A stretch of 14,273 bases of DNA, taken from NCBI GenBank assembly GCA_038127595.1, contig JAYPIC010000042.1, positions 1-14,273 of the forward strand, written 5' to 3'. The notes beneath the pieces are model-generated. The model was not told the DNA's origin, did not search any database, and was given only the letters and a program-made list of their open reading frames with translations. This stretch comes from a bacterium (GTDB lineage Bacteria > Fidelibacterota > Marinisomatia > Marinisomatales > UBA1611). The position numbers were made by a program, and so were the translations under genes. How positions within the stretch are numbered: the stretch's first letter is position 1; the number at the start of each line of letters is the position of its first letter. Positions 1 to 14,273 of the stretch are shown piece by piece.

Positions 1-1
1 G

Positions 2-91
2 GCAATGACCAATGCACTTGAAACAAGAATTAAAGAAAAAATTAAAGATTTATCATTAAAAATAATAAAAAAAATAAATTTTATGGAGTAA
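2..91 (+). CDS. Partial upstream ORF entering from the left edge (AMTNALETRIKEKIKDLSLKIIKKINFME*); either the C-terminus of an upstream gene or the upstream part of a frameshifted fusion with the AGPS homolog
   Basis: Manual translation: frame 2 is open from base 2 to TAA at 89-91, while frame 1 has stops at 19, 31 and 43. The peptide looks helical and protein-like but is too short to assign a family. Confidence 0.45.
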   Translation, partial: AMTNALETRIKEKIKDLSLKIIKKINFME

Positions 92-1821
92 ATGATGATT
101 TATGGGGACATAAGTGGGGTTTTAAAGATTCATCTTTTATCATTAACGATGATAATACTGTAACATTTACTGGAAAAAGATACGAGGGTATTTCTGGTGA
201 GAGATTGCCTTACCTGATACCTTTTGTAACCAAGGTTTTGAATACAGATATAAAAAAAGAGCCATATTTTAAAGAGTTAGAAAAAAAGTATGTCACTGAA
301 AGAAAAATAAATCAAGACTTTGTAAATGATATTGAATCTTTATTCAATGAAGATCAAATTAGTTTTAGTGATGAGGAAAGAGTATTACACAGCCATGGGC
401 AAAACTCTCCAGATGAAGTTTTTAAAGTATTGTATGATAAGCTTGAAAAATTTACAGACATTGTTGTGTACGTAGAAAATGAAGAAGATGTTATTAACTT
501 AATTCAAAAAGCAAAAAAACATAATGTCTGTTTAGTTCCTTATGGTGGAGGAACCAATGTTACTAACGCATTACAACTCCCTGAAGGTGAAGAACGCATG
601 ATTGTCTCTGTTGACACAAGAAGATTGAATAAAATCATTTCAATCGATACCAAAAACCTTTTAATTGAAGTTGAAGCGGGTATTACTGGAAAGTACCTTG
701 AAGAAGAGCTTCAGAAAAAAGGTTTTACAGTAGGACATCAACCAGATAGTATTGAATTATCAACATTAGGAGGATGGATTTCTACTAATGCTGCTGGCAT
801 GAAGAAGAACAAATATGGAAACATAGAAGACATCGTTCAAAATGTGGTAATGGTAACTCCTAATGGCACTATAAACCAAATTAAACCTTTGGTACGATCT
901 TCGATTGGTATAAAAACACAAAACTTATTATTTGGTTCAGAAGGCAACATTGGCATTATTACAAAAGCGGTACTAAAAATACATAAACTACCTGAATGTA
1001 GTGATTATGAGTCTGTTGTACTTAAAGATTGGGATACTGGGCTAGATTTTATGTATGAACTTGCTCATTCAAGCTCTGTTCCAGCAAGTGCTAGAATGCT
1101 GGATAGTTTACACTATCAATTTGGTAGTGCACTAAAACCAGAAAAAAATAATATTGGCAAGCTAAAGAGCAAAATTCAAAAAATAGTTTTTAAAATGAAA
1201 GATTTTAGCACGGACGATTTTGTTGCTGCAGTATTTAAACTTGAAGGCTCATTTTCGGAGGTTGAATACCAAAGAAAAAATATAAAAAGACTAGCTAAAA
1301 AATATAATGGACTCTTGGGTGGGAGTAAAGAAGGTAAAGTAGGATATAATATCACTATGGTAATAGCATACATTCGAGAATTTTTCGTTCCTCAAGGTAT
1401 ACTTGGCGAGACACTTGAAACAGCTGTTCCATGGTCAAAAGTAAATCAAGTCAAAGATGAAGCAAATAAACTTCTAACTGAGCTTCATAAAAAATATGAT
1501 CTTCCAGGTAAGCCATTTTTCTGTTCTAGAATTTCAAAAGTTTACCACACTGGTATTTGTATGTATAACACCATGGGTATTAATGTAAGAGGAATTAAGA
1601 ACCCAGAGAAAGTATTTAGCGATATAGAACATAAAATTAGAGATTGTTTTATTAAAAATGGTGGCTCGATATCTCACCATCATGGAGTAGGAAAATTAAG
1701 GAAAGATTTTATGCCAGAAACAATTTCATCTGGAAGCATAGATGTAATACAAGGCATAAAAAAATCTCAAGATCCAGATAATATTTTTGGTATTAGTAAT
1801 AATATTGTAAATAAAAAATAA
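46..1821 (+). CDS. agpS: Alkyl-dihydroxyacetone-phosphate synthase (alkylglycerone-phosphate synthase, AGPS)-like FAD-linked oxidase, VAO/PCMH family; true start unresolved (ORF track starts at TTG 205, frame is open from 46)
   Basis: Motifs closely match eukaryotic AGPS as I recall it: LVPYGGGTNV, GHQPDSIELSTLGGWISTNAAGMKKNKYGNIED, GSEGNIGIIT, PASARMLD..YQFGSALKP, GY.IT.VIAYIRE, GETLETAVPW and catalytic GGSISHHHGVG. In-frame sequence upstream of 205 (WGHKWGFKDSSFIINDDNTVTFTGKRYEGISGERLP) matches the AGPS N-terminal WNGWGY.DS.F...TGKRY..SG..LP motif. Confidence 0.88.
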   Translation, partial: RFIIKNNKKNKFYGVNDDLWGHKWGFKDSSFIINDDNTVTFTGKRYEGISGERLPYLIPFVTKVLNTDIKKEPYFKELEKKYVTERKINQDFVNDIESLFNEDQISFSDEERVLHSHGQNSPDEVFKVLYDKLEKFTDIVVYVENEEDVINLIQKAKKHNVCLVPYGGGTNVTNALQLPEGEERMIVSVDTRRLNKIISIDTKNLLIEVEAGITGKYLEEELQKKGFTVGHQPDSIELSTLGGWISTNAAGMKKNKYGNIEDIVQNVVMVTPNGTINQIKPLVRSSIGIKTQNLLFGSEGNIGIITKAVLKIHKLPECSDYESVVLKDWDTGLDFMYELAHSSSVPASARMLDSLHYQFGSALKPEKNNIGKLKSKIQKIVFKMKDFSTDDFVAAVFKLEGSFSEVEYQRKNIKRLAKKYNGLLGGSKEGKVGYNITMVIAYIREFFVPQGILGETLETAVPWSKVNQVKDEANKLLTELHKKYDLPGKPFFCSRISKVYHTGICMYNTMGINVRGIKNPEKVFSDIEHKIRDCFIKNGGSISHHHGVGKLRKDFMPETISSGSIDVIQGIKKSQDPDNIFGISNNIVNKK

Positions 1822-1832
1822 GGTTTATCTTT

Positions 1833-2633
1833 TTGGATCTAACTGGAAAAGTATGTGTCATTACTGGAGCCTCATCAGGAATAGGCCAATCTTTAGCAAT
1901 AAAGATTTCATTAAAAGGTGCTACAGTTGTGATGGCTGCGAGGAGAAACTCTAAACTAATAACCATCAAAGAGAAAATTGATACTGAAGGAGGGAAATGT
2001 ATTGGTATCAAGACTGACATTACAAAAAAACTCGAATGCAAGCACCTAATTGATGAGACAATAAATTTATATGGCAAAATTGACATCCTAATCTTGGGAG
2101 CTGGCGTAAGCATGTGGTCTCCATTTGAAGAAATTACTGACATATCTTTTTTTGATGACCTTATGGCAACAAATTATTCAGGAGCAGTACATTGTATCCA
2201 TGCTGCTCTGCCCCACTTAATATCATCTAAAGGCATGATTGTATCGTGTTCTACTGCTCAAGCACTGGTTGGTTTTACAAATCACTCTGGATATGCTGCT
2301 TCAAAACATGCTCTACATGGATTTTTAGATACATTAGATATGGAACTAAATGGCAAAGTACAATTTCTTGAAGCTTGCCTTGGCTGGATTAGAGGAACAA
2401 ATATGCGTTCTAATGCTTTTGGCCCAAGCGGGACTAAAATGGGTGAAACAAAAAGAAAACACAGCAGTAATTCAGTAGATCTAGATGTTTGCACAGACAA
2501 AATTATTAATGCGATTTTGGAAAGAAAAAAAACTATTTATATCCCATGGAAACTTAGTCTAATACCATATTTAGACCTTTTCTTTGGAAAATTTTTAAGA
2601 AATAAGATAACAAAAGCAGTTAAATCAGAATGA
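1833..2633 (+). CDS. Classical short-chain dehydrogenase/reductase, DHRS7/DHRS7B/11beta-HSD1-like subgroup, probably NADP(H)-dependent
   Basis: TGASSGIG Rossmann motif, basic AARR after strand beta-B (NADP preference), catalytic YAASK in YAASKHALHGFLDTL, and GWIRGTNMRSNA segment. TTG start lies 11 bp after the AGPS stop, so probably co-transcribed. Confidence 0.9.
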   Translation: MDLTGKVCVITGASSGIGQSLAIKISLKGATVVMAARRNSKLITIKEKIDTEGGKCIGIKTDITKKLECKHLIDETINLYGKIDILILGAGVSMWSPFEEITDISFFDDLMATNYSGAVHCIHAALPHLISSKGMIVSCSTAQALVGFTNHSGYAASKHALHGFLDTLDMELNGKVQFLEACLGWIRGTNMRSNAFGPSGTKMGETKRKHSSNSVDLDVCTDKIINAILERKKTIYIPWKLSLIPYLDLFFGKFLRNKITKAVKSE

Positions 2634-2652: not shown

Positions 2653-3798
2653 TTATTTTACCATTTTTAAATATTTAGAAATAATTCTAAGCATAATCTC
2701 ATCAGTTCCTCCACCAATTGAATGGAGCCTACCATCTCTATATAATTTTGCTGCTTGATTTTCCCATGTAAAACCCATCCCGCCATAATACTGAACGCAG
2801 GTATCTGCTACTTCCCTAATGAGCCTGCCACTCTTTAGCTTAGCCATAGAAGCTAAAAGCGTTACATCTTCACCTTGGATAAAATGTTCACAGGCACGAT
2901 AAATTAATGATCTTAATAATTCAACCTCAGTTTTAAGCTCTGAAAGTCTAAATTGAATAACCTGGTTATCAATAATTTTCTTTCCAAAGGCTTTCCTTTC
3001 ATTACAATAATCAATAGTATAATCAATACAATTATCCATGGAAACTAATATACTTGCAGCAAGAAAAAGTCTTTCTTCTTGGAATTGTTCCATCTGCATT
3101 TTAAAGCCTTCACCCTCTTTTCCAATTCTATAACGCTGTGGAACACAGACATTATCAAAGTAGACTGGAGCAGTATCAGAAGTTCTTAATCCTATTTTAT
3201 CAATTTTATCTCCTATTGAAACTCCCTTTGAATCAGATGGAACTATAATAAGTGACTTATTTCGATGAGGAGCACCATCACTTGTATTTACCAATGCGCA
3301 AAAGTAATCTGCCTGGGTAGCATTTGTAATCCACATTTTTTGTCCATTTATAATATAATCATCAGCTTTCTTTATAGCATTTGTTTTCAAAGCTGAAACA
3401 TCAGAACCTCCTCCCGGTTCACTTATAGCCACGGATGCTACCATTTCTCCTTTAATCGATGGAATAAGAAATTCTTGCTTTAATTTATGCGAGCCATATC
3501 GCTCTAAAGCAGGTGTAGCCATATCTGTTTGGACACCAATTGCAGTAACAGTACCACAATCATCTGCATGTCCTAGTGCCTCAGCAAAAATAATTCCGTA
3601 GCTATAATCTAGACCCATTCCTCCGTATTCTTCATTCTTCGTTATCCCAAGTAAATCAAGTTCTGCCATTTTCTTAAAAAGATCATGAGCTGGAAAAAAT
3701 CCATCTCTCTCCCATTCATCAGTAAATGGTTTAATTTCATTTTTTGCAAAATCCTTTACTGTATTATATAATGCTAATTTTTCTTCGTTTAAATGCAT
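2653..3798 (-). CDS. atuD: Acyl-CoA dehydrogenase, citronellyl-CoA dehydrogenase (AtuD)-like
   Basis: ACAD motifs AISEPGGGSDV, INGQKMWITN and SIGGGTDEIM. AtuD-type segments GGMGLDYSY, AIGVQTDMATPAL, PHRNKSLIIVP and QMEQFQEERL. ATG preceded by AAGGA; clustered with atuA/C/E homologs. Confidence 0.85.
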   Translation of the reverse strand: MHLNEEKLALYNTVKDFAKNEIKPFTDEWERDGFFPAHDLFKKMAELDLLGITKNEEYGGMGLDYSYGIIFAEALGHADDCGTVTAIGVQTDMATPALERYGSHKLKQEFLIPSIKGEMVASVAISEPGGGSDVSALKTNAIKKADDYIINGQKMWITNATQADYFCALVNTSDGAPHRNKSLIIVPSDSKGVSIGDKIDKIGLRTSDTAPVYFDNVCVPQRYRIGKEGEGFKMQMEQFQEERLFLAASILVSMDNCIDYTIDYCNERKAFGKKIIDNQVIQFRLSELKTEVELLRSLIYRACEHFIQGEDVTLLASMAKLKSGRLIREVADTCVQYYGGMGFTWENQAAKLYRDGRLHSIGGGTDEIMLRIISKYLKMVK

Positions 3799-3823
3799 CT
3801 AATATTCCTTCAAATAATTATGA

Positions 3824-4651
3824 TCATTTAGAATTTATCCAAGCAGGTTTTCTTTTTTTAAAAAAAGAATCAAAACCTTCTTTGCCGTCGTCACTAATAA
3901 TCGTATCAGAAAATAAATCTGCTGCTTGTTCCATATCTAGCTCAATGCTAGAGGATAAAATCTTTTTTGTTATTGCAACAGCATTCGGAGAGCATTCTAG
4001 AACCTGAGATTTAACCTCTGTGATGAGTTTTTTTAATTCATTCTGGTCTAAAGCAAGATAGTCAACTAGACCAATATCGTAGCCTTTTGATCCATCTATG
4101 ACTGTTCCAAGAAGCATCAACTTTTTTGCTACCGAATGTCCCAGACGCCTTATTACATATTTAGATATTTGAGAAGGAGTTAAACCAATTTTTGTTTCAG
4201 TTAGTGCAAACTTAGTATCAGATAGCGATATTATAAGATCAGAAGCACAAGCAATTCCAAAGCCACCAGCAAAAGCATACCCTTCAGTAACAGAGACTAC
4301 AACCTGCGGGGCTTCATTAATAGTTTTAAGCAAATTGCCAATGACCATGCTTAAATCAAATGCTTCCTCTTTTGCTTTAGTTCCAGAACTAGCTATTTTT
4401 TTCATTTGTTTTAAATCAGCACCAGCACAAAATATACCATTTGATCCCCTAATTAGGACTCCTCTAACGTGCTTATTGTCTCTAATCAAATCAAAAACAG
4501 TAAATAATTCTTTAATTAAATTTTGTTTTAATGCATTTCTATTTTCTACATTATTGAGGTGGATATCTAACCAACCATTTTCATAATTAAGAGTAATATC
4601 ACTTGTTTTTGGAAAATTTTTTATATTCATTTTTTTTGTTTCATAAAACAT
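3824..4651 (-). CDS. atuE: Enoyl-CoA hydratase/isomerase (crotonase family), isohexenylglutaconyl-CoA hydratase (AtuE)-like; alternative start ATG at 4630
   Basis: Crotonase motifs FCAGADLK, AGGFGIACASD, FALTETKIGLTPSQI and C-terminal EGFDSFFKKRKPAW. APQVVV, SQI..YVIRRLG and CSPNA resemble AtuE; directly downstream of atuC. Confidence 0.82.
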   Translation of the reverse strand: MFYETKKMNIKNFPKTSDITLNYENGWLDIHLNNVENRNALKQNLIKELFTVFDLIRDNKHVRGVLIRGSNGIFCAGADLKQMKKIASSGTKAKEEAFDLSMVIGNLLKTINEAPQVVVSVTEGYAFAGGFGIACASDLIISLSDTKFALTETKIGLTPSQISKYVIRRLGHSVAKKLMLLGTVIDGSKGYDIGLVDYLALDQNELKKLITEVKSQVLECSPNAVAITKKILSSSIELDMEQAADLFSDTIISDDGKEGFDSFFKKRKPAWINSK

Positions 4652-4658
4652 TTACTAT

Positions 4659-6281
4659 TTACATTCTAGCTATTCCAAAACTATTTGGCTTCATAGCTCT
4701 ATGTTTGCTTTCCCAAAATGTTTCTAACAAAAATCCTAAAATCTTTCTTGTATCTACTGGATTAATTAGCCCATAATCAAGTCCTCTACCAGAAGTTGTG
4801 AATGCATCAGATTGAGAATTGTATTTTTCAGTAATCTCAACCAATTGGCTCTTTAACTTTTCACTATCTACAGCCTTACCTTTTCTTTCAGCAGAGGCAA
4901 TCATGACCTGCTCCATAGTTTTAGCAGCTTGTTCCCCACCCATTACTCCAATTTTTGCATTAGGCCAAGAAAATATAAAATCTGGCTCATATGCTTTGCC
5001 AGACATTGCGTAATTACCCGCACCAAAACTAGCGCCCACATTCAAGGTAATCTTAGGAACTTTAACATTAGAGACAGCTTGGATTAGCTTAGAGCCATGT
5101 TTAATCATTCCCAACTGCTCTGTTTGCTTTCCAACCATAAATCCAGTTGTATTGCTTAAAAAAATTAATGGAGTATCAGATTGATCACATAACTGAATGA
5201 ATTGAGCAGATTTTGTAGCACCATTAGGGTCTATAGGACCATTGTTTCCAATAATACCGCATGCAAACCCGTTAATTTTAGTATGAACACATACCGTGGA
5301 AACACCATACTGAGGCTTGAAATCCATAAAATCAGAGCTATCTACAATTCTAGCAATTAATTCGCGTACATTATAAGGAACTTTATAGTCAATTGGTACA
5401 ACGCCAATGATTTCTTCACAATCATATATGGGTTCTTGAAATTTAATCGACTCACGTTTTAAAATTTTTGAATTCCAGTCAATTTTATTAATTAAATCTC
5501 TAATAATCTCAATTGCATGAGCATCATCATCAGCAAGATATTCTACTAGGCCGGTAACCCTAGAATGCATTTCACTACCTCCTAGCTCCTCATTTTTAGC
5601 AATTTCACCAGTGGCTGCTTTTAAAAGCGCAGGCCCAGCTAATGCTGCCATCCCATTTTTTTTGACTCCAATTACATAATCACTCATCCCTGGCTGATAT
5701 GCACCCCCAGCTGTTGATAAACCATGTAAAACAGCAATAGTGGGTATCCCAGCTGCGCTTAATTTCGCTAAGCCATAAAACATGCCGCCAGTATTTGACC
5801 AAAACTCTACAGTATAATTCATCAAATTTATTCCTGAACTTTCAACTAGATGAATAAATGGAAGTTTTTGTTTAAGTGATATATCTAAGCATCCAAGTGC
5901 CTTATCAATTGATTTTGCTGTTAAAGCGCCAGCATTTATGCCACTATCATCAACAAATACTACACATCTTACACCACAAACAAATCCTATCCCAGCAATT
6001 ATGCTACCCCCAGATACACTAGTGTCATGATTATCATCATCAACAAGAAAACTTATCATATTGAAAAGCTCTATGAAAATTTCATCTTTATCTAAAAGCT
6101 TAGATAATCTCTCTCGAGGTGTTAGCTGTCCTCTTTCAATAAATTTAGATCTTCTTCTTTCTGAAACTTTTTCAGCACGCGAATGAATATCTTCCATTTT
6201 TTTAATCAGTTTAGTGAAGTCTTCTTTATTATTATTAAAAAGATCTGATTTGCGATTTATTTTTGAAATGAAGACTGCCAT
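4659..6281 (-). CDS. atuC: Acyl-CoA carboxylase carboxyltransferase (beta) subunit, geranyl-CoA carboxylase beta (AtuC)-like
   Basis: RGQLTPRERL, LPFIHLVESSG, STAGGAYQPGMSDY, LAGPALLKAATGE, EELGG, NTTGFMVG, GMIKHGSKLIQAVSN, GASFGAGNYAM and terminal FGIARM. AGGT RBS-like sequence upstream; adjacent to atuA. Confidence 0.88.
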   Translation of the reverse strand: MAVFISKINRKSDLFNNNKEDFTKLIKKMEDIHSRAEKVSERRRSKFIERGQLTPRERLSKLLDKDEIFIELFNMISFLVDDDNHDTSVSGGSIIAGIGFVCGVRCVVFVDDSGINAGALTAKSIDKALGCLDISLKQKLPFIHLVESSGINLMNYTVEFWSNTGGMFYGLAKLSAAGIPTIAVLHGLSTAGGAYQPGMSDYVIGVKKNGMAALAGPALLKAATGEIAKNEELGGSEMHSRVTGLVEYLADDDAHAIEIIRDLINKIDWNSKILKRESIKFQEPIYDCEEIIGVVPIDYKVPYNVRELIARIVDSSDFMDFKPQYGVSTVCVHTKINGFACGIIGNNGPIDPNGATKSAQFIQLCDQSDTPLIFLSNTTGFMVGKQTEQLGMIKHGSKLIQAVSNVKVPKITLNVGASFGAGNYAMSGKAYEPDFIFSWPNAKIGVMGGEQAAKTMEQVMIASAERKGKAVDSEKLKSQLVEITEKYNSQSDAFTTSGRGLDYGLINPVDTRKILGFLLETFWESKHRAMKPNSFGIARM

Positions 6282-6300
6282 TATGGTTACCTATTAAAAG

Positions 6301-8085
6301 TTAAACACAAATTACCTCGTTATAAACTGATTCAGGTACTGATATTTTAATGTTTAAAAAATTCTGAGCATATCCTTTACCTTGTGGATCTAGTAACAAA
6401 CTAGACATTCCACCACCATCCAAACAATTTTTCAATAAAAAATTTAATCCATATATTTTTGGTAACTCCCAGCATAAAATGGATTCTTTAGATATATTTT
6501 TTAACTGTTTGGCAATAATATCCATATTCAAGGAATCTTTGATAAAAGGAAAATAATCAGATTTCCTCGATATTACTCCAATATTAACATGGTTGCCTTT
6601 GTCCCCACTTCTAGCATAGGCAAGTTTTATTAGTGGGACTTCAAAATCTAAACTCTTGTCTGGTTGTCCTAAAATTGCAAAATCAGATCTTAAAATAGGC
6701 TCATAATGCTCGATAAAATTGGATTTTATTTTTTCTCTTATTGAATCCAAATTAACCGAACAATTAATACTGTTCTTATTAATTAAAAAAGAATATAATT
6801 TTATCAAAGGTGAAATAGAAGGCCTACCACCTAAATAGTTCATAACGCCTGGTGCCATTCCTGTAGCAGCTTGTGCTATCTCCCTAGAAAAAATAATTAG
6901 TGCTTCTTTATTTTCATGAGAAACAGCTAGTCTCATGACTACTTCATTACTTCCTGATGTAACTTTTAAATCTTTGATATCATCAGAGCCTATCACTGAT
7001 AAGTTTATTTTTTTAAAATTTGAAAAATTATTTTTCTTAAATAGATACTCTACTCTTTTAAGTATAGAATTCCCAATGGAATATGCTTTTTTCACCGCTT
7101 TTTGACCACCGATTACTAGAGTCGCTACTGATTTAAAACCGTTATGATATGTAGCAGATACTTTATAAAATATCGGCGCGGCATAACCTTTCGCACCGGT
7201 CACATGAACTCTATCCTTGCCTAAATCAGTAATTTTCACTTCTGTAAAATCACAAATGACATCAGGAAGGATATAAGCTTTAGGATCGCCAATTTCATAA
7301 AGGAGCTGCTCAGCTACAGTGCCAAAATTAACCATACCACCAGTACCTTTTGGTTTAGTAACAATGAAATCACCATTTTGTTCAACTTCAACTACTGGGA
7401 AACCAATATTTGCAAAATTATTTAGTGACTCCCAATCTGTAAAATTTCCTCCAGTTACTTGAGCACCACATTCAATTATATGCCCTACTAAACTGCCGCT
7501 AGCTAAATGATCCAATTCACTAGCTCCCCATTTAAATTCATGCATTAGTGGCCCCAAAGCTAGTGCACTATCAACGCATCTCCCTGTTAATACAATATCA
7601 GCGCCTAAATCAAGTGCTCTTTTTATTGGATTAGCACCAAGGTATACATTTATACTTAACAAATTTTTAGGTAATGACTTTTCACTTTCAATTTCTTTAA
7701 TATTCATTTTACCTAACTTATCTTGACAATCAATTAGATCATCACCTTCGACTGTCGCAATTTTTAGATTTATATTTTTTTTCTCAGCCTCATCAATTAG
7801 CGCTTTTTTACAAGCATCAAGATTTACGCCACCCGCATTACTAATAACTTTTATTTTTTTTTGTTTAATTTTTTTTAAGAGAGGTCCAATGTGATTTATA
7901 AAATCTATGGCATACCCTTTATTACTATTTTTTAATTTTGCCCCAGCAAGAATGGACATAGTCACCTCTGATAAATAATCAAATACCAGATAGTCTACAT
8001 CACCCTTTTCTACAATTTGCGGAGCTGCAATATCCGTATCACCCCAAAATCCTGAAGCACAACCTATTCTAATTTTTTTAATCAA
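6301..8085 (-). CDS. atuA: Acyclic terpene utilisation protein AtuA (DUF1446 family)
   Basis: Family signatures IRIGCASGFWGD, DYLVFDYLSEVTMSILA, NAGGVN, GADIVLTGRCVDSAL, GHIIECGAQVTGGNF, EQLLYEIGDP..YILPDV, ARSGDKGN and LDGGG.SSL.LDPQGK. TTG start with AGGA upstream. Confidence 0.93.
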   Translation of the reverse strand: MIKKIRIGCASGFWGDTDIAAPQIVEKGDVDYLVFDYLSEVTMSILAGAKLKNSNKGYAIDFINHIGPLLKKIKQKKIKVISNAGGVNLDACKKALIDEAEKKNINLKIATVEGDDLIDCQDKLGKMNIKEIESEKSLPKNLLSINVYLGANPIKRALDLGADIVLTGRCVDSALALGPLMHEFKWGASELDHLASGSLVGHIIECGAQVTGGNFTDWESLNNFANIGFPVVEVEQNGDFIVTKPKGTGGMVNFGTVAEQLLYEIGDPKAYILPDVICDFTEVKITDLGKDRVHVTGAKGYAAPIFYKVSATYHNGFKSVATLVIGGQKAVKKAYSIGNSILKRVEYLFKKNNFSNFKKINLSVIGSDDIKDLKVTSGSNEVVMRLAVSHENKEALIIFSREIAQAATGMAPGVMNYLGGRPSISPLIKLYSFLINKNSINCSVNLDSIREKIKSNFIEHYEPILRSDFAILGQPDKSLDFEVPLIKLAYARSGDKGNHVNIGVISRKSDYFPFIKDSLNMDIIAKQLKNISKESILCWELPKIYGLNFLLKNCLDGGGMSSLLLDPQGKGYAQNFLNIKISVPESVYNEVICV

Positions 8086-8141
8086 AAATACTTCCTATAA
8101 ATTTTTCAAATGCTTTAAAAGGTAATAACAAAGAATAAGAT

Positions 8142-8543
8142 TCAAATCAAAAATATCGTTTTACCCAAAATTTTAACTTCACCAGAGAGATTAAGAACTT
8201 TTAGTTTAAGAGTTATAATTTTTTTTTGATTATTTTTTTCAATTTTTGAAACCTCGCCTTTACAGATTAATCTCTCTTCTAATTTTGTAATTGAGCAGAA
8301 TTGAACACTAAAATGTTTTAAAAAAGATATAGAATTTGAATTTGCTATACTCTTCCCTAAATGAGCCATAATTAGCATACCATGAACTATAATGTTATCA
8401 AGGCCAATTGTTTTTGCAAATTCTTTATCAAAATGTATTGGATTAAAATCACCTGAAGCTCTAGCATATTCAACTAAGTCATTTTGATTGAAAGGACCAA
8501 TATTGGTTTCAGGGATTTCATAACCCACTTTAATATTTCTCAA
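8142..8543 (-). CDS. MaoC/PaaZ-type hot-dog (R)-specific enoyl-CoA hydratase/dehydratase, catalytic subunit (HadB-like)
   Basis: Hydratase-2 motif YARASGDFNPIHFD with catalytic Asp/His, followed by IVHGML; 133 aa single hot-dog size. Confidence 0.88.
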   Translation of the reverse strand: MRNIKVGYEIPETNIGPFNQNDLVEYARASGDFNPIHFDKEFAKTIGLDNIIVHGMLIMAHLGKSIANSNSISFLKHFSVQFCSITKLEERLICKGEVSKIEKNNQKKIITLKLKVLNLSGEVKILGKTIFLI

Positions 8544-8555
8544 ATCAAAAATAAA

Positions 8556-8996
8556 TTAACTCCTCACAAGCAAAGTATTATTCATTACGCAAACTTCGAC
8601 TTCATCTTGATTATAAAATTTTGATTCATACACAAAAAACATCAAACTGCTTTCGTTTTTTTTATAAGCATTTTTAAAAATTGTTTCCATAGAAATTTTA
8701 TCTTGAACAAATACTAAATCTGAATAATTAAATTCCTGACCGGCATGTAGAATTTTCTCTAATCCTATTCCAAGATCTTCCAAACATTCATTTAGAATAT
8801 TCATTTTCATTCCAATTGATATTAAATAAGTCGGAGGGCAAACTATATTTTTAAAACCTTCATTTTGAGCGACAATTTTATTGGAAAATATCTCATCCTC
8901 TTGCTTTGTAGCTTTTGAAAAAGAAACTACATCTTCCTCTTTTATTTCCATAGAGATGGTTTTATAAGACTTGCCAATTAATTTTCCAGCGTTCAT
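8556..8996 (-). CDS. MaoC dehydratase N-terminal-domain protein (HadA/HadC-like, probably non-catalytic partner)
   Basis: Segments F..AT.....IF....A...GF..IVCPPTY and ILHAGQEFNY...V...D are typical of the MaoC_dehydrat_N family. It lacks the D-x4-H motif and lies 12 bp upstream of the catalytic MaoC gene. Confidence 0.8.
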   Translation of the reverse strand: MNAGKLIGKSYKTISMEIKEEDVVSFSKATKQEDEIFSNKIVAQNEGFKNIVCPPTYLISIGMKMNILNECLEDLGIGLEKILHAGQEFNYSDLVFVQDKISMETIFKNAYKKNESSLMFFVYESKFYNQDEVEVCVMNNTLLVRS

Positions 8997-9002
8997 AAAA
9001 TC

Positions 9003-9036
9003 ATTTAAAGCTAAGTATTAAAATATTTAAAGCTAA
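9003..9036. repeat. 12-bp perfect direct repeat ATTTAAAGCTAA (9003-9014, 9025-9036), 22-bp period
   Basis: Read directly from the sequence, in the gap between the dehydrogenase and the MaoC-N gene; function unknown. Confidence 0.5.
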
Positions 9037-10316
9037 TCATTTTGTAAAAATTGCTTAATATCACTAACATTCTTCAAAGTAGGAGGCAGGTCAAAATATT
9101 TCCCATATGAGGTAGAAAGAAATTGAGACCTTTTAACAAAATTTTTAATCCCATATTTATTTATAAATTCAAATATACCCGGCGAGGGGAAACCCCATCC
9201 ATATATACTTCCAATATTTGCTTCAGAAATTGAATTTAATACACCTTCTTCATAACAATGTAAAGCCTCTATTATTTGAGAGAATAATAATCTATCAATT
9301 ATCTCTCGCTCATTTAATTTAGGCTTCACAGTTTTAAAATTTTTATCAAGGCCTTCCCAGAGGTACTTTTTAGAATTTTTTGGGTAATTATAAAACCCTT
9401 TTTTATTAGGTCTGCCAAATCGCCCAAATTCATTTATCATTTTATCAAGGATATTATCCCAAGCTCCATCAATAGAATCCATCATCCGCTTGTTTAAAGA
9501 TTTTTTAATTTCACTTCTAATTTTATAAGCAACCTTTAAACCTATTTCATCGAGTACTGTTAACGGTCCAACAGGAAAACCAGCTTTCTTAGCGATTGAC
9601 TCAATAGGTTTTGATGGGTAGCCATCATAAAGCAAAGCCATACCCTCCATAACATACCTCATAAATACTCTAGTAGTATAAAACCCTGGACCATCGTTCA
9701 CTAAAATAGGAATTTTTTTAATTTGAGTAATGAAATCAAATATTTTTGAAATAGTTCGCAAACTTGTTTCTTTTGTTTTAATTACTTCAACTAATTTCAT
9801 TTTATGTACAGGAGAGAAAAAATGTATGCCAATGAAATTTTTCGGATGATTTGAATATTTGGCTAATTTAGAAATTGGAATACTTGATGTGTTAGATGAT
9901 AAAATAATATCATCTTTTATCTTTTTTTTCAAATTTTTAAAGATATCAGATTTTAATTTTTCATCCTCAAATACAGCTTCAATGATTAAGTCACAATCTT
10001 TTAATAGAGAATAATCTTTTGTTACATAAATTAGCTTTAAAATTTGTTCTCTTTCGTTTGATGAGATTTCATTGCGATTTATTTTATTTTTTAAAATTTC
10101 ATTTATTTTATGTAGACCTAGTGACGCTAATTCTTTTGTTTTATCTAACAAAATAACTTCTATCCCATTTAAAGATGATACTAAAGAAATACCATGTCCC
10201 ATTAATCCAGCACCTATCACACCTATTTTTTTAATTTGCGTTTTAGGGTAACCCATGGGTCTAGCAAAGCCAGATTTAATTTTTTTTATTTGAGCTTGAG
10301 CAATACTAGTTAACAT
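9033..10316 (-). CDS. 3-hydroxyacyl-CoA dehydrogenase, corresponding to the C-terminal part of a FadJ/FadB-type multifunctional enzyme (no enoyl-CoA hydratase domain)
   Basis: GVIGAGLMGHGI NAD-binding motif, DLIIEAVFED, SSNTSSIPI, catalytic IHFFSPVHKMKLVE and VNDGPGFYTTR. Two C-terminal helical repeats (GFPVGPL..LDEIG; EANIGSIYGWGFP). Confidence 0.88.
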   Translation of the reverse strand: MLTSIAQAQIKKIKSGFARPMGYPKTQIKKIGVIGAGLMGHGISLVSSLNGIEVILLDKTKELASLGLHKINEILKNKINRNEISSNEREQILKLIYVTKDYSLLKDCDLIIEAVFEDEKLKSDIFKNLKKKIKDDIILSSNTSSIPISKLAKYSNHPKNFIGIHFFSPVHKMKLVEVIKTKETSLRTISKIFDFITQIKKIPILVNDGPGFYTTRVFMRYVMEGMALLYDGYPSKPIESIAKKAGFPVGPLTVLDEIGLKVAYKIRSEIKKSLNKRMMDSIDGAWDNILDKMINEFGRFGRPNKKGFYNYPKNSKKYLWEGLDKNFKTVKPKLNEREIIDRLLFSQIIEALHCYEEGVLNSISEANIGSIYGWGFPSPGIFEFINKYGIKNFVKRSQFLSTSYGKYFDLPPTLKNVSDIKQFLQND

Positions 10317-10338
10317 TGATCATTCCATAAAAAAGTAA

Positions 10339-11331
10339 TCATCTATGACTAAGAATTACTCTACCAACTTGCAAACCATTTAATATTTTTTCTATTTCAG
10401 CAATTATTTCATCAATTGAAACTGATTTGTAAAGGTTATCAATGTCATCTATATACCATTCTGAGGCAAACTTATTCCAAATCTCTGATTTTATTGAAAT
10501 AGGGGTCTCTGCGGAATCAATTCCTACTAAGTGATTTGCCCTTAATATAAATGGATATACAGTCGCATTAAAGGAAGGTCCAGCTACATTACCGCAGCAA
10601 GTTATAACACCTCCATATTTCATACTAGGTATGAGATTAGAAAGAACTTCTCCTCCAACTGTATCAATGGCAATATCCCAAATTCCTTTTCCCATTGGCT
10701 TACGGACCGAAATTATAAAATCTTTTTTGGATATAATTTCATCAGCTCCAATCATTTTTAAAAAGCCTTCCTCATTTAACTTAGTAGTTATTGCTGTAAC
10801 CTTAGCACCTAATAATTTTAATAACTTAATAGCAAACGAGCCTACGCCTCCCGTAGCGCCAGTAACGACAGCATTTCTACCATAAATACCATTAAGTTTT
10901 TTTAGTTTTTTAACACAAAGTCCAGCTGTTAGGCCTGCAGTACCTATAGCCATAGATTCTTTAGCTGTTAAATTTTTTGGAAGATGACATGCCCACGAGC
11001 TTGGAACTCTTATATATTCACCGAAGCCTCCTGAAGTGTTCATCCCTAAATCATAACCAGAGACTATTACCTCCTGACCTATTTTAAAATTTTCATTTTT
11101 TGAAAATTCAATAATCCCTACTGCATCGATACCAGGTGTATGCGGATATTTTTTTGTTACCCCAAAATTACCGCTACTTGAAAGTGCATCTTTATAGTTC
11201 AGGGAACTATAACTAACCTTTATAAGTAATTCACCATCAGGTAGATCATTAATAAATTTATCTTTTACAGAGATAGAAAATATTTTATCAATGCTTTGTT
11301 CAATAGTGATTGCTTTAAATGTAGTTTTCAT
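10339..11331 (-). CDS. acuI: YhdH/YhfP (AcuI-like) zinc-independent medium-chain reductase, putative NADPH acrylyl-/enoyl-CoA reductase
   Basis: YSSLNYKDAL, YPHTPGID, GYDLGMNTSGGFGEYIRVP, MAIGTAGLTAG, VTGATGGVGS, DTVGG and TVYPFILR..L.GIDS. Confidence 0.85.
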   Translation of the reverse strand: MKTTFKAITIEQSIDKIFSISVKDKFINDLPDGELLIKVSYSSLNYKDALSSSGNFGVTKKYPHTPGIDAVGIIEFSKNENFKIGQEVIVSGYDLGMNTSGGFGEYIRVPSSWACHLPKNLTAKESMAIGTAGLTAGLCVKKLKKLNGIYGRNAVVTGATGGVGSFAIKLLKLLGAKVTAITTKLNEEGFLKMIGADEIISKKDFIISVRKPMGKGIWDIAIDTVGGEVLSNLIPSMKYGGVITCCGNVAGPSFNATVYPFILRANHLVGIDSAETPISIKSEIWNKFASEWYIDDIDNLYKSVSIDEIIAEIEKILNGLQVGRVILSHR

Positions 11332-11357: not shown

Positions 11358-12590
11358 TTATTTAAATAATCGTTTAATAGAATCTTCTTTCCCTCTGATT
11401 TTTAATTTAATTGCTTTGTCACCATAATCGGTATCTAATATTTCGGCTTGATTTTGTATCTGAGATAAAATTTTACCTTGCTCATATGAAATATTTAAAT
11501 CGAAAACATTAAAGTCACTTTCTATCTTCTCAATTAAGTGATTTTTCACATCATCTAACCTTAAATGATGCAATGCTGAAGTTAAAATTGCATTCCTGTA
11601 GTTAGACTTTAATTTTTTTATATCGTTTTCATTTTCAACAAGATCAATTTTATTAAATATGTAGCTTTTTGGTATCTCGTTAGCCCCAAGTTCATTAAGT
11701 ACTTGAGAAATTGTTTCGAGGTGTTCGTCAATAATTTTTGAGGTTGCATCTAATACAATGAGAATGTGATTAGCTTCTAACAACTCTTTTAGAGTACTTT
11801 TAAATGATGCAACAAGATTGTGAGGTAGTTTCCTTATAAAACCAACAGTATCACTTATAAGAACCTGATGTTTTTTGTTTAATATAAGTTTTCGAACAGT
11901 AGTGTCTAGTGTCGCAAAAAGCTGATTTTTTACATAAACATTATTCCCAGTTAACGAATTAAATAATGTTGATTTACCAGCATTAGTATAACCTACTAGA
12001 GCTACTCTGAATTCATTTACTCTGTTTTGACTTTGTGTTTTTCTTTCAGATTCAATTTTAGTTAAATCTAATTTTAATTTAGAAATTTTATCCCTTATTA
12101 ATCTTCTATCAACTTCAATTTGCGTTTCTCCCATCCCAGCTCGAGTACCAACACCACCCATTTGCCTTTCAAGATGAGTCCATTGTCTTGTTAATCTTGG
12201 TAATAAATACTGACATAATGCTAGTTCTACTTGTGTCTTCGCTTCTCTGGTTTTAGCATGCTTTTTAAATATATCTAAAATTAGAGAGCTTCTGTCTATG
12301 ACTTTGATTTTTTTAGCAAGTTTATGATAATTTTTTACTTGAGCAGGACTTAGTTCATCATCAAATATTATAACATTCGCACCTAATAATTTTGCTTGAT
12401 CAATAACTTGCTGTGCTTTTCCTTTACCAATATAAAAAGCAGGGTTTATTTTTTGAACTCTTTGTGTGATTTCACCTAAAGTTTCAACATTAGCAGTTTG
12501 CGCTAACATTTTTAATTCATCTAAATGGTTTCTTACGTCACCATCAAAGACTTTAGGTAATATTATTCCAATTAATAGAGCTTTATCCAA
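11358..12590 (-). CDS. hflX: Ribosome-splitting GTPase HflX
   Basis: G1 GYTNAGKST, G2 LFATLD, G3 DTVGF, G4 NKID and G5 SAL. N-terminal IGKGK, FDDELSPAQ, LILDIF..HAKTREAKTQVELA and GETQIEVDRR. Confidence 0.97.
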   Translation of the reverse strand: MDKALLIGIILPKVFDGDVRNHLDELKMLAQTANVETLGEITQRVQKINPAFYIGKGKAQQVIDQAKLLGANVIIFDDELSPAQVKNYHKLAKKIKVIDRSSLILDIFKKHAKTREAKTQVELALCQYLLPRLTRQWTHLERQMGGVGTRAGMGETQIEVDRRLIRDKISKLKLDLTKIESERKTQSQNRVNEFRVALVGYTNAGKSTLFNSLTGNNVYVKNQLFATLDTTVRKLILNKKHQVLISDTVGFIRKLPHNLVASFKSTLKELLEANHILIVLDATSKIIDEHLETISQVLNELGANEIPKSYIFNKIDLVENENDIKKLKSNYRNAILTSALHHLRLDDVKNHLIEKIESDFNVFDLNISYEQGKILSQIQNQAEILDTDYGDKAIKLKIRGKEDSIKRLFK

Positions 12591-12599
12591 ATCTATAAA

Positions 12600-14273
12600 T
12601 CATTTTCTATTATTTTTGAAAGTAGGTCTTCCAACCCAAGTTTCTATCCAAAATAAGATTATTGCAAATATCAAAAATATTTTCCATAATGTTTTACCAT
12701 GTCTTATTTCTTTAAATACATTAATGAGATCATGACTAGCTGTGATAAATTTATATTCTAACCCATTTAATAATATTTCAATCTCAGCAGCAGAAATTTG
12801 TTTTGAGACTATTTCATTTGGATGTAATTCTGTCGCAAAAGAGGTGAATAGTTCTTTATTTTTATAAACATTATAAATACCTAACTCATCAGTGTTCGTA
12901 ATTTTTAAACCTTCCATGGTAAAATCAGGTACTATTAAATTACTAACTCCTGAGGGAGATTGAACCTCCCATTCATTTCTTACTTCATTTCCATTTAATA
13001 TAATCCATTTAATGTCACCAACTAATATTGGCAAAGAATTAATCTCATCCGTGCCCCCAAGAATAAGCAGTTTATGCATTAAAGGAATCAACAAACCTCT
13101 AAGAGTAAGATCATTCCAATTTAAGTTCAATAGAGATGTGAAATAAAAAATTTTGCCGCTTCCTCTATCAAAATCAATAAGAAAAGGGTCTCCATTATTT
13201 AATTCTAAATGAACTTTTTGATTCGCCTTAGGAATGTGTTTTACATAGCTAAAAACTTCAGGTAGATCATTTGATAATTTTCTCACATTTAAATCTGAAA
13301 GAATATGATCCCCCTTTGTTGGCATGATAACATTAAAATGTCCACTATTTATTTCTATTTTTCTAGTAGCTGTAGGAAATCTTAGATTGGAAAAATATTT
13401 CTGATAGACAGGATCAGGTTCTATGCCTCCAGAAAACCATATTAAACCACCCCCATTTTTTAAAAAAACATCTAACTCATTGAATGCTGCTTCAGTTATC
13501 GCTTCAGGGTTATGTACAACTAAAATATCTGTATCATCAACAAAAAGTCTATTTAAAATGGGTTGTTTTCGCAGTTCAAGGTTGATCAACTGCTTGTTAG
13601 GATCAATCGCATTTATTATTAGATCAAATATGTTATAATCTTGTTCTGAATTACCAATAATTAAACAATTAATCTTATTTAAAATAGGAGTGCTTAGGTA
13701 CCAAATATTATCATTTAAATAATCATCTTTAGGAAGCCTAACACTTCCTTGTAACATACCCTTTTTGTTAGGATAAGCCTGAAAGATAAAATCTTTATTT
13801 GCTCCTCCTTCAAAATCTGAGATAACTTGCCCCACTCTTCCATTATCAAATAACAGGTTTATTGGAATGTTGTTAGTTTCTGTTTGGTTAGAATTATTTA
13901 CGGTTGTTTTAATTTTTAAAAGTTGGTCTGGTACTTTTATCCTACTAAGTACATCCAACCGATTTATTGAAAGATTATTTATTACTTCGCCAACATCAAT
14001 TAAATAATATTTCCAATTCTTAGATAACGAATCCACAAAATCACTTTTTGTTTGAAAATCGCTAATTAGAATACACTCACGTATTGGCTCAATTACATCT
14101 AGAGTAGTTGTAAGTGAATCTAAATTAAACCAAATGTTATCATAATTTTGAGTAGGTTTAATTTGATCAATTACCATTTTTTTATTTTCATCAGAAGTTT
14201 TACCTGAAAAAAGAATTTTAGGAGGGCATGTTTGAGCTATACTTACAGTTGTGTTTTGTTCATAAATTTCTAA
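12600..14273 (-). CDS. Partial (5' end outside window) BatA/vWA-domain-type membrane-anchored protein: end of vWA domain, Ig/CARDB-like domain, GATase1-like domain, C-terminal TM helix
   Basis: Frame stays open from 14177 to the window edge (LEIYEQNTTVSIAQTCPPKILFSGKTSDENKK-MVID). ILISDFQ vWA end, DDYLNDNIWY, L..FLKNGGGLIWF, G.GKIFYF......WNDL....L.IPLMH, and hydrophobic LWKIFLIFAIILFWIETW at the C-terminus. Confidence 0.75.
   Translation of the reverse strand, partial: LEIYEQNTTVSIAQTCPPKILFSGKTSDENKKMVIDQIKPTQNYDNIWFNLDSLTTTLDVIEPIRECILISDFQTKSDFVDSLSKNWKYYLIDVGEVINNLSINRLDVLSRIKVPDQLLKIKTTVNNSNQTETNNIPINLLFDNGRVGQVISDFEGGANKDFIFQAYPNKKGMLQGSVRLPKDDYLNDNIWYLSTPILNKINCLIIGNSEQDYNIFDLIINAIDPNKQLINLELRKQPILNRLFVDDTDILVVHNPEAITEAAFNELDVFLKNGGGLIWFSGGIEPDPVYQKYFSNLRFPTATRKIEINSGHFNVIMPTKGDHILSDLNVRKLSNDLPEVFSYVKHIPKANQKVHLELNNGDPFLIDFDRGSGKIFYFTSLLNLNWNDLTLRGLLIPLMHKLLILGGTDEINSLPILVGDIKWIILNGNEVRNEWEVQSPSGVSNLIVPDFTMEGLKITNTDELGIYNVYKNKELFTSFATELHPNEIVSKQISAAEIEILLNGLEYKFITASHDLINVFKEIRHGKTLWKIFLIFAIILFWIETWVGRPTFKNNRK

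Follow-up and report, generated by a model that had tools for sequence, protein, structure and literature searches.

The route to alkyl-ether lipids that starts from dihydroxyacetone phosphate (DHAP) is already described in bacteria. In Myxococcus xanthus, the MXAN_1676-1675-1674 operon encodes an alkyl-DHAP synthase (AGPS) that is ~42% identical to the human enzyme, a fusion of a fatty acyl-CoA reductase (FAR) with an acyltransferase, and an NAD-dependent epimerase/dehydratase (PMC9131029, PMC13012113), and this bacterial AGPS operon is assigned a minor role in ether lipids (PMC9131029, PMC13159169). Of 134 metagenome-assembled genomes of Black Sea Marinisomatota, 49 are reported to carry Agps homologues (PMC11868695); such homologues have also been counted in Poribacteria, Acidobacteriota, and Latescibacterota (bioRxiv 10.64898/2026.06.23.733905), and the signal in AGPS is considered too weak to place the origin of the enzyme (PMC13012113). 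A further enzyme, FcrA, reduces fatty acyl-CoA to alcohol rather than acting on HMG-CoA; some FcrA proteins have been suggested to feed ether lipids, and an AGPS gene lies nine genes from Pb-fcrA (PMC11948995). Here we analyze a stretch of 14,273 nucleotides ("the window"; contig JAYPIC010000042.1, assembly GCA_038127595.1), which opens at the very start of contig C42 of a Marinimicrobia (Marinisomatota) genome (2.0 Mb, 96% complete) and carries an AGPS gene followed by the gene for a short-chain dehydrogenase/reductase (SDR). A preliminary description presented this pair as a route distinct from the bacterial ElbD, PlsAR, and Ger/Mss systems, a claim of novelty that the M. xanthus operon shows to be overstated.

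The window pair is the last two genes of a four-gene operon, which encodes an FcrA-like reductase, a PlsC-like acyltransferase, AGPS, and the SDR. We estimate at roughly 70% the probability that this operon makes a precursor of alkyl-ether lipids by means of these four enzymes. In the mechanism that we propose, fatty acyl-CoA and DHAP would be converted to 1-O-alkyl-glycerol-3-phosphate, a precursor of alkyl-ether membrane lipids: the FcrA-like reductase would turn fatty acyl-CoA into fatty alcohol, the acyltransferase would acylate DHAP, AGPS would exchange the acyl group of acyl-DHAP for the fatty alcohol to give alkyl-DHAP, and the SDR would reduce alkyl-DHAP to 1-O-alkyl-glycerol-3-phosphate, whereupon housekeeping PlsC-type enzymes would acylate the sn-2 position. 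Good support for ether-lipid synthesis by AGPS and the DHAP route, as first proposed from the gene pair, comes from the sequences, the tree, the order of the genes, their co-occurrence, and gene fusions; for the predicted SDR step, support comes from context only.

How does the operon cross the edge of the window? Bases 1-58 are the 3' end of the acyltransferase gene, whose stop codon overlaps the AGPS ATG, and the end of another contig of the same genome (C107) and the start of the window have 17 bases in common; contigs of runs X2 and X12 extend from the C107-end sequence into the window. The DNA to the left thus inspected holds the genes of the FcrA-like fatty acyl-CoA reductase and the acyltransferase, both of which the preliminary description had overlooked, and relatives show the same order (HMGR-like protein of about 387 amino acids [aa], PlsC-like acyltransferase of about 241 aa, AGPS, and SDR, where HMGR is HMG-CoA reductase). 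Contigs of RNA runs X15 and X16 span genes of the locus, although a contig is no proof that genes are transcribed or share one transcript. A promoter and terminator scan of positions 1700-2800 returned 8 sites against 4.7 +/- 2.2 expected, an uninformative count, and no terminator. The AGPS and SDR genes are co-oriented and 11 bp apart, as first noted, with the AGPS stop ending at 1821 and the SDR TTG start at 1833. The AGPS start, in contrast, had been placed at 46, where a 591-codon open frame (46-1821) begins, and has to be moved to 55, because G stands at 57 in all three covering runs (X2, X12, and X15), which turns the ATT of this assembly into ATG, because relatives carry an overlapping ATGA (acyltransferase stop and AGPS start) at the matching place, and because near-identical proteins begin with MSN (five inspected among the best 120, all of 588 aa; the best 120 homologues in the first search are all 97-99% identical). 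A programmed frameshift, prompted by an ATG at 5 in frame 2 and by a frame 1 without a start before 205, was ruled out: frame 2 encodes the tail of the acyltransferase, and in other runs positions 55-57 are ATG without any insertion or deletion.

The AGPS assignment carries most of the argument. The motifs named in the preliminary description are all present (GHQPDS, GMKKNKYGNIED, PASAR, VIAYIR, and SHHHGVG), and the protein is, as stated there, of the AGPS type rather than a generic FAD oxidase, with 406 bits (E 2e-120) to mammalian AGPS over residues 22-585 at about 40% identity versus at most 93 bits to lactate/glycolate oxidases; 2uuu, an AGPS entry of Dictyostelium length, gives 277 bits. 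Its Pfam domains, FAD_binding_4 and FAD-oxidase_C, both also occur in GlcD, and its score for the GlcD equivalog TIGR00387 is 155 bits against a cut-off of 567.9. In the alignment, it keeps the equivalents of His300, Arg419, Tyr578, and His615-617. Arg419 and Tyr578 are taken as active-site positions; the PDB mutant entries 4bc7 and 4bca differ from the wild-type enzyme at precisely this Arg and this Tyr, both of which the window AGPS keeps. His616 and His617 are described as active-site residues of AGPS (PMC13019191).

In a phylogeny of 34 rows (picked from 175, plus five outgroups; the mammalian and M. xanthus sequences themselves are not included), the window AGPS falls with eukaryotic and myxobacterial AGPS and not with glycolate oxidases, and the long-type clade has a support of 100/98. 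The 26 rows of this clade hold the eukaryotes Lagenidium, Pharyngomonas, Ephemera, and Thalassiosira as well as Myxococcota, Acidobacteriota, and Leptospirales, and the His, Arg, Arg, Tyr, and triple-His sites are kept in every row (26/26); short AgpS-like and GlcD-like proteins lie outside. Given that the window AGPS sits within a bacterial group of 14 rows (100/99), sister-level to the myxobacterial group, "eukaryote-type" denotes the family and not a recent transfer from a eukaryote. Myxococcota loci with the MXAN_1676-1675-1674 gene order encode AGPS 41-43% identical to that of the window and in the same clade. A GlcD/Dld identity was rejected on the TIGR00387 score, the 406 bits to AGPS, and the separate tree clade. 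At L198:4154-8850 and L199:812-4730, genes for a FadR-type regulator and a GlpD-like protein flank that of the short AgpS-like type, which has about 530 aa and an HQH motif; with such neighbours it occurs in other families of the same order, and it is possibly catabolic. One genome (G021) has the acyltransferase-AGPS region twice, on C11 and C24, with one copy cut at a contig end.

The fatty alcohol is predicted to come from the HMGR-like protein, which is likely an FcrA-type fatty acyl-CoA reductase. This protein of 386 aa has the class I HMGR fold and keeps the catalytic Glu, Lys, Asp, and His (E87, K215, D289, and H380), and its pocket departs from that of HMGR at Ser684 (Asp, D208), Lys735 (Tyr, Y258), and Leu862 (Trp, W376). 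The published FcrA signature consists of an acidic residue at the Ser684 position, loss of the conserved Lys, and a bulky residue at the Leu862 position (PMC11948995; the paper prints Lys795, and from its own offset to Gly411 we infer Lys735); across the 27 of 27 aligned rows of the FcrA-like tree, which is without canonical HMGR or Pb-FcrA itself, these positions hold D/E, a residue other than Lys, and W/F. Canonical HMGR was rejected as an identity given 283 bits against the TIGR00533 cut-off of 441.8, the three changed pocket residues, the lack of a match to HMG-CoA synthase (PF08540) in the source genome (control matched in 4), and the presence of DXR. The source genome also yielded no match to the FAR/ElbD reductase domain and none to WS/DGAT, the latter in a search without a matching control, so that absence is not shown. 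At four Bacteroidota (Cytophagia) loci, AGPS is preceded by a classical FAR and by a member of the same acyltransferase family, so that FAR and FcrA occupy equivalent places. On the 5' side of the FcrA-like gene, about 240 non-coding bases with complementary ends (gggcgggtt...tcc / ctgcctgccc; L105:1230-1425, G000:C107) are perhaps a small structured RNA or a repeat.

The operon acyltransferase, a PlsC-like protein with PF01553 and the motifs NHxxxxD and FPEGTR, scores under the PlsC cut-off (58 vs 103 bits) and is a predicted DHAP acyltransferase. The SDR has TGASSGIG and MAARR (with basic residues after beta-2 as in the NADP type) as well as the segments first described, YAASKH and GWIRGTNMRSNAFG, except that in the latter the spacing from GWI to TN is two residues and not one. 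It passes the cut-off of family PRK06181 (NF004825) with 238.2 against 215 bits, and its first strand lies at residue 7, so that there is no N-terminal membrane anchor. Its likeness to DHRS7B/DHRS7 is presumed from motifs; no DHRS7-family sequence was among its matches in the PDB, ESM Atlas (bacterial clusters only), and long-protein searches. Profile and structure searches put 11beta-HSD1 among the near matches, not separated from generic SDRs: it comes fourth in the profile ranking, with 139 bits over positions 2-257 against 137 for generic SDRs, and its structural match (Z 31.2, with 234 aligned at rmsd 2.2) is equalled by others and exceeded by 2jah (Z 33.0). The DHRS7 subfamily is described as close to HSD11B1 (PMC13200781), and DHRS7B and DHRS7 are described as reducing alkyl- and acyl-DHAP (PMC13200781, PMC7517302); no paper on PRK06181 was found in the literature search.

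Context, then, is what supports the predicted role of the SDR as an acyl/alkyl-DHAP reductase. A PRK06181 member above the cut-off occurs in 18 of 41 relatives, in every one beside AGPS. We surveyed 80 AGPS loci from many phyla, of which 79 were scored and 74 had room downstream; an SDR lies directly 3' of AGPS in 45 of the 74, and 39 of these reach at least 100 bits, under seven submitter-labelled phyla. Myxococcota often have an epimerase-type reductase in that slot. Within our sample of 301 phylum genomes, 48 carry AGPS, 45 carry the FcrA-like gene, and 44 carry both; in 41 of the 44, the two genes share a contig, where the FcrA-like gene precedes AGPS by about 750 bases. Close SDR orthologues (E below 1e-60; 12 more genomes with weaker matches were left uncounted) occur in 44 genomes, all AGPS-positive. 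Among the 41 relatives, PF00368 and long AGPS occur in the same 21 genomes, in one of them only as a fragment.

Gene fusions tie the same functions together. AGPS is fused to a PRK06181 SDR in two metagenomic proteins (P0319 and P0321), which could be read-throughs of overlapping genes, and the gammaproteobacterial P0125 joins AGPS to an operon-type acyltransferase part 39% identical to the operon enzyme. Fusions of FAR, acyltransferase, and AGPS of 1700-2700 aa also exist (P0136, which is from the diatom Thalassiosira profunda, P0137, P0141, P0145, P0155, and P0193), and some of these giants add acyl-CoA-binding and DegT-like domains. At L068:3-12446, a polyketide synthase ending in an NAD_binding_4 reductase domain lies directly 5' of AGPS and is followed by an AMP-binding-ACP-acyltransferase protein, a possible locus for a polyketide-alcohol ether lipid. 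At L042, L043, L038, and L050, the AGPS-SDR pair is near a full ElbD-like protein (FAR-AMP-binding-ACP-acyltransferase), and ElbD may feed AGPS in those genomes.

The operon may also have become the main entry to membrane-lipid synthesis in its host, since the source genome yielded no match to PlsX or PlsY. PlsY occurs in 246 of the 301 phylum genomes. Between rpmF and fabH, G009 and G020 carry plsX, which is cleanly missing from this place in G000, G007, G022, and G003. Across 25 family genomes, 14 are without PlsY, 13 of them AGPS-positive, and 11 have PlsY, 4 of them AGPS-positive; of 25 scanned for PlsX, 19 are without it, 17 of them AGPS-positive. The exceptions, G003 (92%) and G018 (71%), are also without the flanking genes and may be assembly gaps. 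No extra PlsC-like paralogue standing in for PlsY stood out in PlsX/PlsY-less genomes (counts only). The subclade may have lost PlsX and PlsY because the acyltransferase and SDR alone would give 1-acyl-glycerol-3-phosphate (1-acyl-G3P).

A sister genus of the same order (g26), with streamlined genomes of about 1 Mb, bears on this idea. No match was found to AGPS, the FcrA-like reductase, or PlsY in 30 of 30 g26 genomes, to GpsA in 38 of 38, to GlpK in 4 of 4, or to PlsX in the one genome examined (G035). In 31 of 38 genomes there is an acyltransferase that falls within the clade of the operon enzyme, with 42% identity to it, and in all 30 loci fetched a PRK06181-like SDR gene precedes it by at most 15 bases. 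With no evident source of G3P (GpsA and GlpK scanned), acylation of DHAP followed by reduction is the simplest reading; the pair supports the predicted DHAP acylation and reduction roles of acyltransferase and SDR and is a candidate bacterial acyl-DHAP pathway. To our knowledge, the acyl-DHAP route to lysophosphatidic acid is regarded as eukaryotic. We speculate, at clearly worse than even odds, that abundant marine Marinimicrobia replaced the PlsX/PlsY entry by the DHAP route, such that the operon would be the subclade's only maker of the sn-1 bond and bulk lipids would be largely alkyl ethers, that the SDR and acyltransferase remaining in g26 would make lysophosphatidic acid by a bacterial acyl-DHAP pathway without glycerol-3-phosphate dehydrogenase, and that these bacteria would contribute a major share of the alkyl glycerol ethers in seawater.

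Several observations weigh against these readings. As to the replacement, the loss of PlsX and PlsY was probably a single event, G003 may be a true counter-example, and most AGPS-positive genomes outside the source subclade retain PlsY; in the source genome itself gpsA is retained, and G3P could be acylated by one of its three further PF01553 proteins. The g26 SDR is divergent: it shares only 32% identity with the window SDR, falls at 209 bits under the cut-off of 215, and is not placed in the window SDR clade with support. As to the four-enzyme route, disruption of the M. xanthus AGPS gene lowered ether lipids only slightly (PMC9131029). The FcrA-like protein has no N-terminal Lad domain, and its Lys735 position is occupied by Tyr rather than by a small residue; sequence cannot separate DHAP from G3P or lysophosphatidic acid as the acceptor of a PlsC-like acyltransferase. 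The best PDB matches of the SDR are generic, with clavaldehyde dehydrogenase first, no adjacent SDR was found in Chloroflexota (7/7), Myxococcota (5/5), Bacteroidota (4/4), or the sole Pseudomonadota locus, and Acidobacteriota often have an unrelated SDR in the slot downstream of AGPS. Finally, the genomes are kin and the co-occurrence counts are not independent, so that what they reveal is a cassette passed on as one block.

Could AGPS, FcrA, and the acyltransferase make alkyl-DHAP while the SDR has a different substrate, such as a sterol, an alcohol, or an acyl-CoA, and alkyl-DHAP is reduced by, for example, GpsA? The retained gpsA would allow it, steroid dehydrogenases and generic SDRs, about 2 Z units apart at most, are among the top structural matches of the SDR, and the SDR is not next to AGPS in 29 of 79 loci at any score, with other reductases replacing it elsewhere. 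We nevertheless find this unlikely: close SDR orthologues are confined to AGPS-positive genomes, AGPS-SDR fusions exist, three different Rossmann-fold reductases fill the AGPS-downstream slot across phyla, and the SDR-acyltransferase pair is present in GpsA-less g26. Is the operon instead mainly for salvage or remodelling, attaching scavenged alcohols (phytol-type or otherwise branched, for example) or recycling dietary ether lipids in connection with the nearby Atu-like genes for breakdown of terpenes or branched acyl-CoA? The Atu-like cluster directly follows the pair on the other strand, and AGPS is patchy (48/301 genomes), but Atu-like neighbours occur only in the closest relatives and vary elsewhere, 44 of the 48 AGPS-positive genomes also carry a dedicated alcohol-forming reductase, as de novo synthesis predicts, and the short AgpS-like type, in its separate clade and with its GlpD and FadR neighbours, is the better catabolic candidate; we judge this reading quite improbable.

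Two further proposals concern single enzymes. That the FcrA-like gene feeds wax esters, the setting in which FcrA was characterized (PMC11948995), or is a true HMGR, whose class I fold it has, so that its link to AGPS is incidental, seems to us very improbable: HMG-CoA synthase gave no match and DXR is present, WS/DGAT gave none in the uncontrolled search, and the gene holds its place upstream of AGPS in 41 of 44 genomes. That the FAD protein is a lactate/glycolate-type oxidase deserves hardly any credence; both Pfam domains are common to AGPS and GlcD, but the two scores, the separate clade, and the different active-site residues all point away from it. We favour ether-lipid synthesis by the four enzymes of what is an intact operon.

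Positions of the features discussed, in the window unless another contig or locus is given
Feature	Position	Strand	Basis or remark
3' end of PlsC-like acyltransferase gene	1..58	+	frame 2 matches the C-terminus of the relatives' 241-aa acyltransferase
AGPS (alkyl-DHAP synthase), long eukaryote/MXAN_1676 type, 588 aa	55..1821	+	similarity, domains, tree
Classical SDR, 266 aa, PRK06181 (NF004825), NADP-type motif; predicted acyl/alkyl-DHAP reductase	1833..2633	+	profile score, gene order, fusions
Atu-like cluster, terpene or branched acyl-CoA breakdown	2653-11331	-	profile/domain matches
HflX GTPase and 3' part of large membrane-anchored protein (weak ABC_transp_aux match)	11358-14273	-	
FcrA-like gene	own-genome contig C107, 2505-3665		upstream of acyltransferase gene
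Acyltransferase gene, remaining part	own-genome contig C107, 3678-end		PF01553
plsX deletion in rpmF-fabH-fabD-fabG cluster	L121:4573-4803 (G000:C5)		53-base gap
g26 SDR-acyltransferase pair	L134:7185-8715 (G035), also L168-L197		

The Atu-like cluster comprises genes for an acyl-CoA dehydrogenase, an enoyl-CoA hydratase, a carboxyltransferase, AtuA, two MaoC-type dehydratases, a 3-hydroxyacyl-CoA dehydrogenase without its hydratase half, and an AcuI/YhdH-type reductase.

What would these assignments mean? The operon would be a compact, apparently oxygen-independent recipe of four genes for alkyl-ether lipids, it offers candidate enzymes for two steps that are open in bacterial AGPS pathways (DHAP acylation and alkyl-DHAP reduction), and it makes the published guess that FcrA feeds ether lipids directly testable. 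The loss of PlsX and PlsY and the pair in GpsA-less g26 point to an overlooked bacterial start of phospholipid synthesis. It is plausible that the operon lineage is a source of seawater alkyl glycerol ethers, on which nothing direct was found in the literature; if true, uncultured marine bacteria could be named as producers of ether-lipid biomarkers. The AGPS-SDR and acyltransferase-AGPS fusions, the subclade's PlsX/PlsY loss, and the g26 pair are added here; the four-gene operon, that loss, and a bacterial acyl-DHAP pair were not found described in the literature searched, most subscription journals being outside its coverage.

Compared with known systems, the operon is set apart from ElbD and Ger/PlsAR, with which it would have ether-lipid end products in common, as neither the ElbD reductase domain nor PF09989 (Ger/PlsA) had a match in the source genome. 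PEDS1/CarF gave no match there either, in a search whose lack of a matching control means that absence is not shown, and alkyl rather than vinyl ethers are accordingly expected. Short AgpS-like proteins have the FAD-oxidase fold in common with the window AGPS but form a separate clade with different motifs. Like the yeast and animal acyl-DHAP pathway (Ayr1p, with DHRS7B named as its mammalian counterpart; PMC7517302), the acyltransferase and SDR would yield 1-acyl-G3P without G3P, here in bacteria. With FcrA (Grossi et al. 2025, PMC11948995), the HMGR-like protein has in common the class I fold, the catalytic residues, the three signature positions, and a host without the mevalonate pathway; it differs in lacking Lad (386 aa vs 515-529 aa in Chloroflexota homologues) and in belonging to a tight operon with acyltransferase, AGPS, and SDR. 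The animal peroxisomal pathway (FAR1, GNPAT, AGPS, and DHRS7B/DHRS7) is matched in an AGPS about 40% identical with its active site, in the same predicted order of reactions, and in an NADP-type classical SDR, whereas here FcrA stands for FAR, a small PlsC-like protein stands for GNPAT, and the SDR is unanchored. The M. xanthus operon has the same long-type AGPS family and, as predicted here, the same four functions in one operon; nonetheless, the alcohol in our locus would come from an HMGR-fold FcrA and not from FAR, the acyltransferase is a separate PlsC-like protein of 241 aa, and the reductase slot is filled by a PRK06181 SDR and not by an extended-SDR epimerase.

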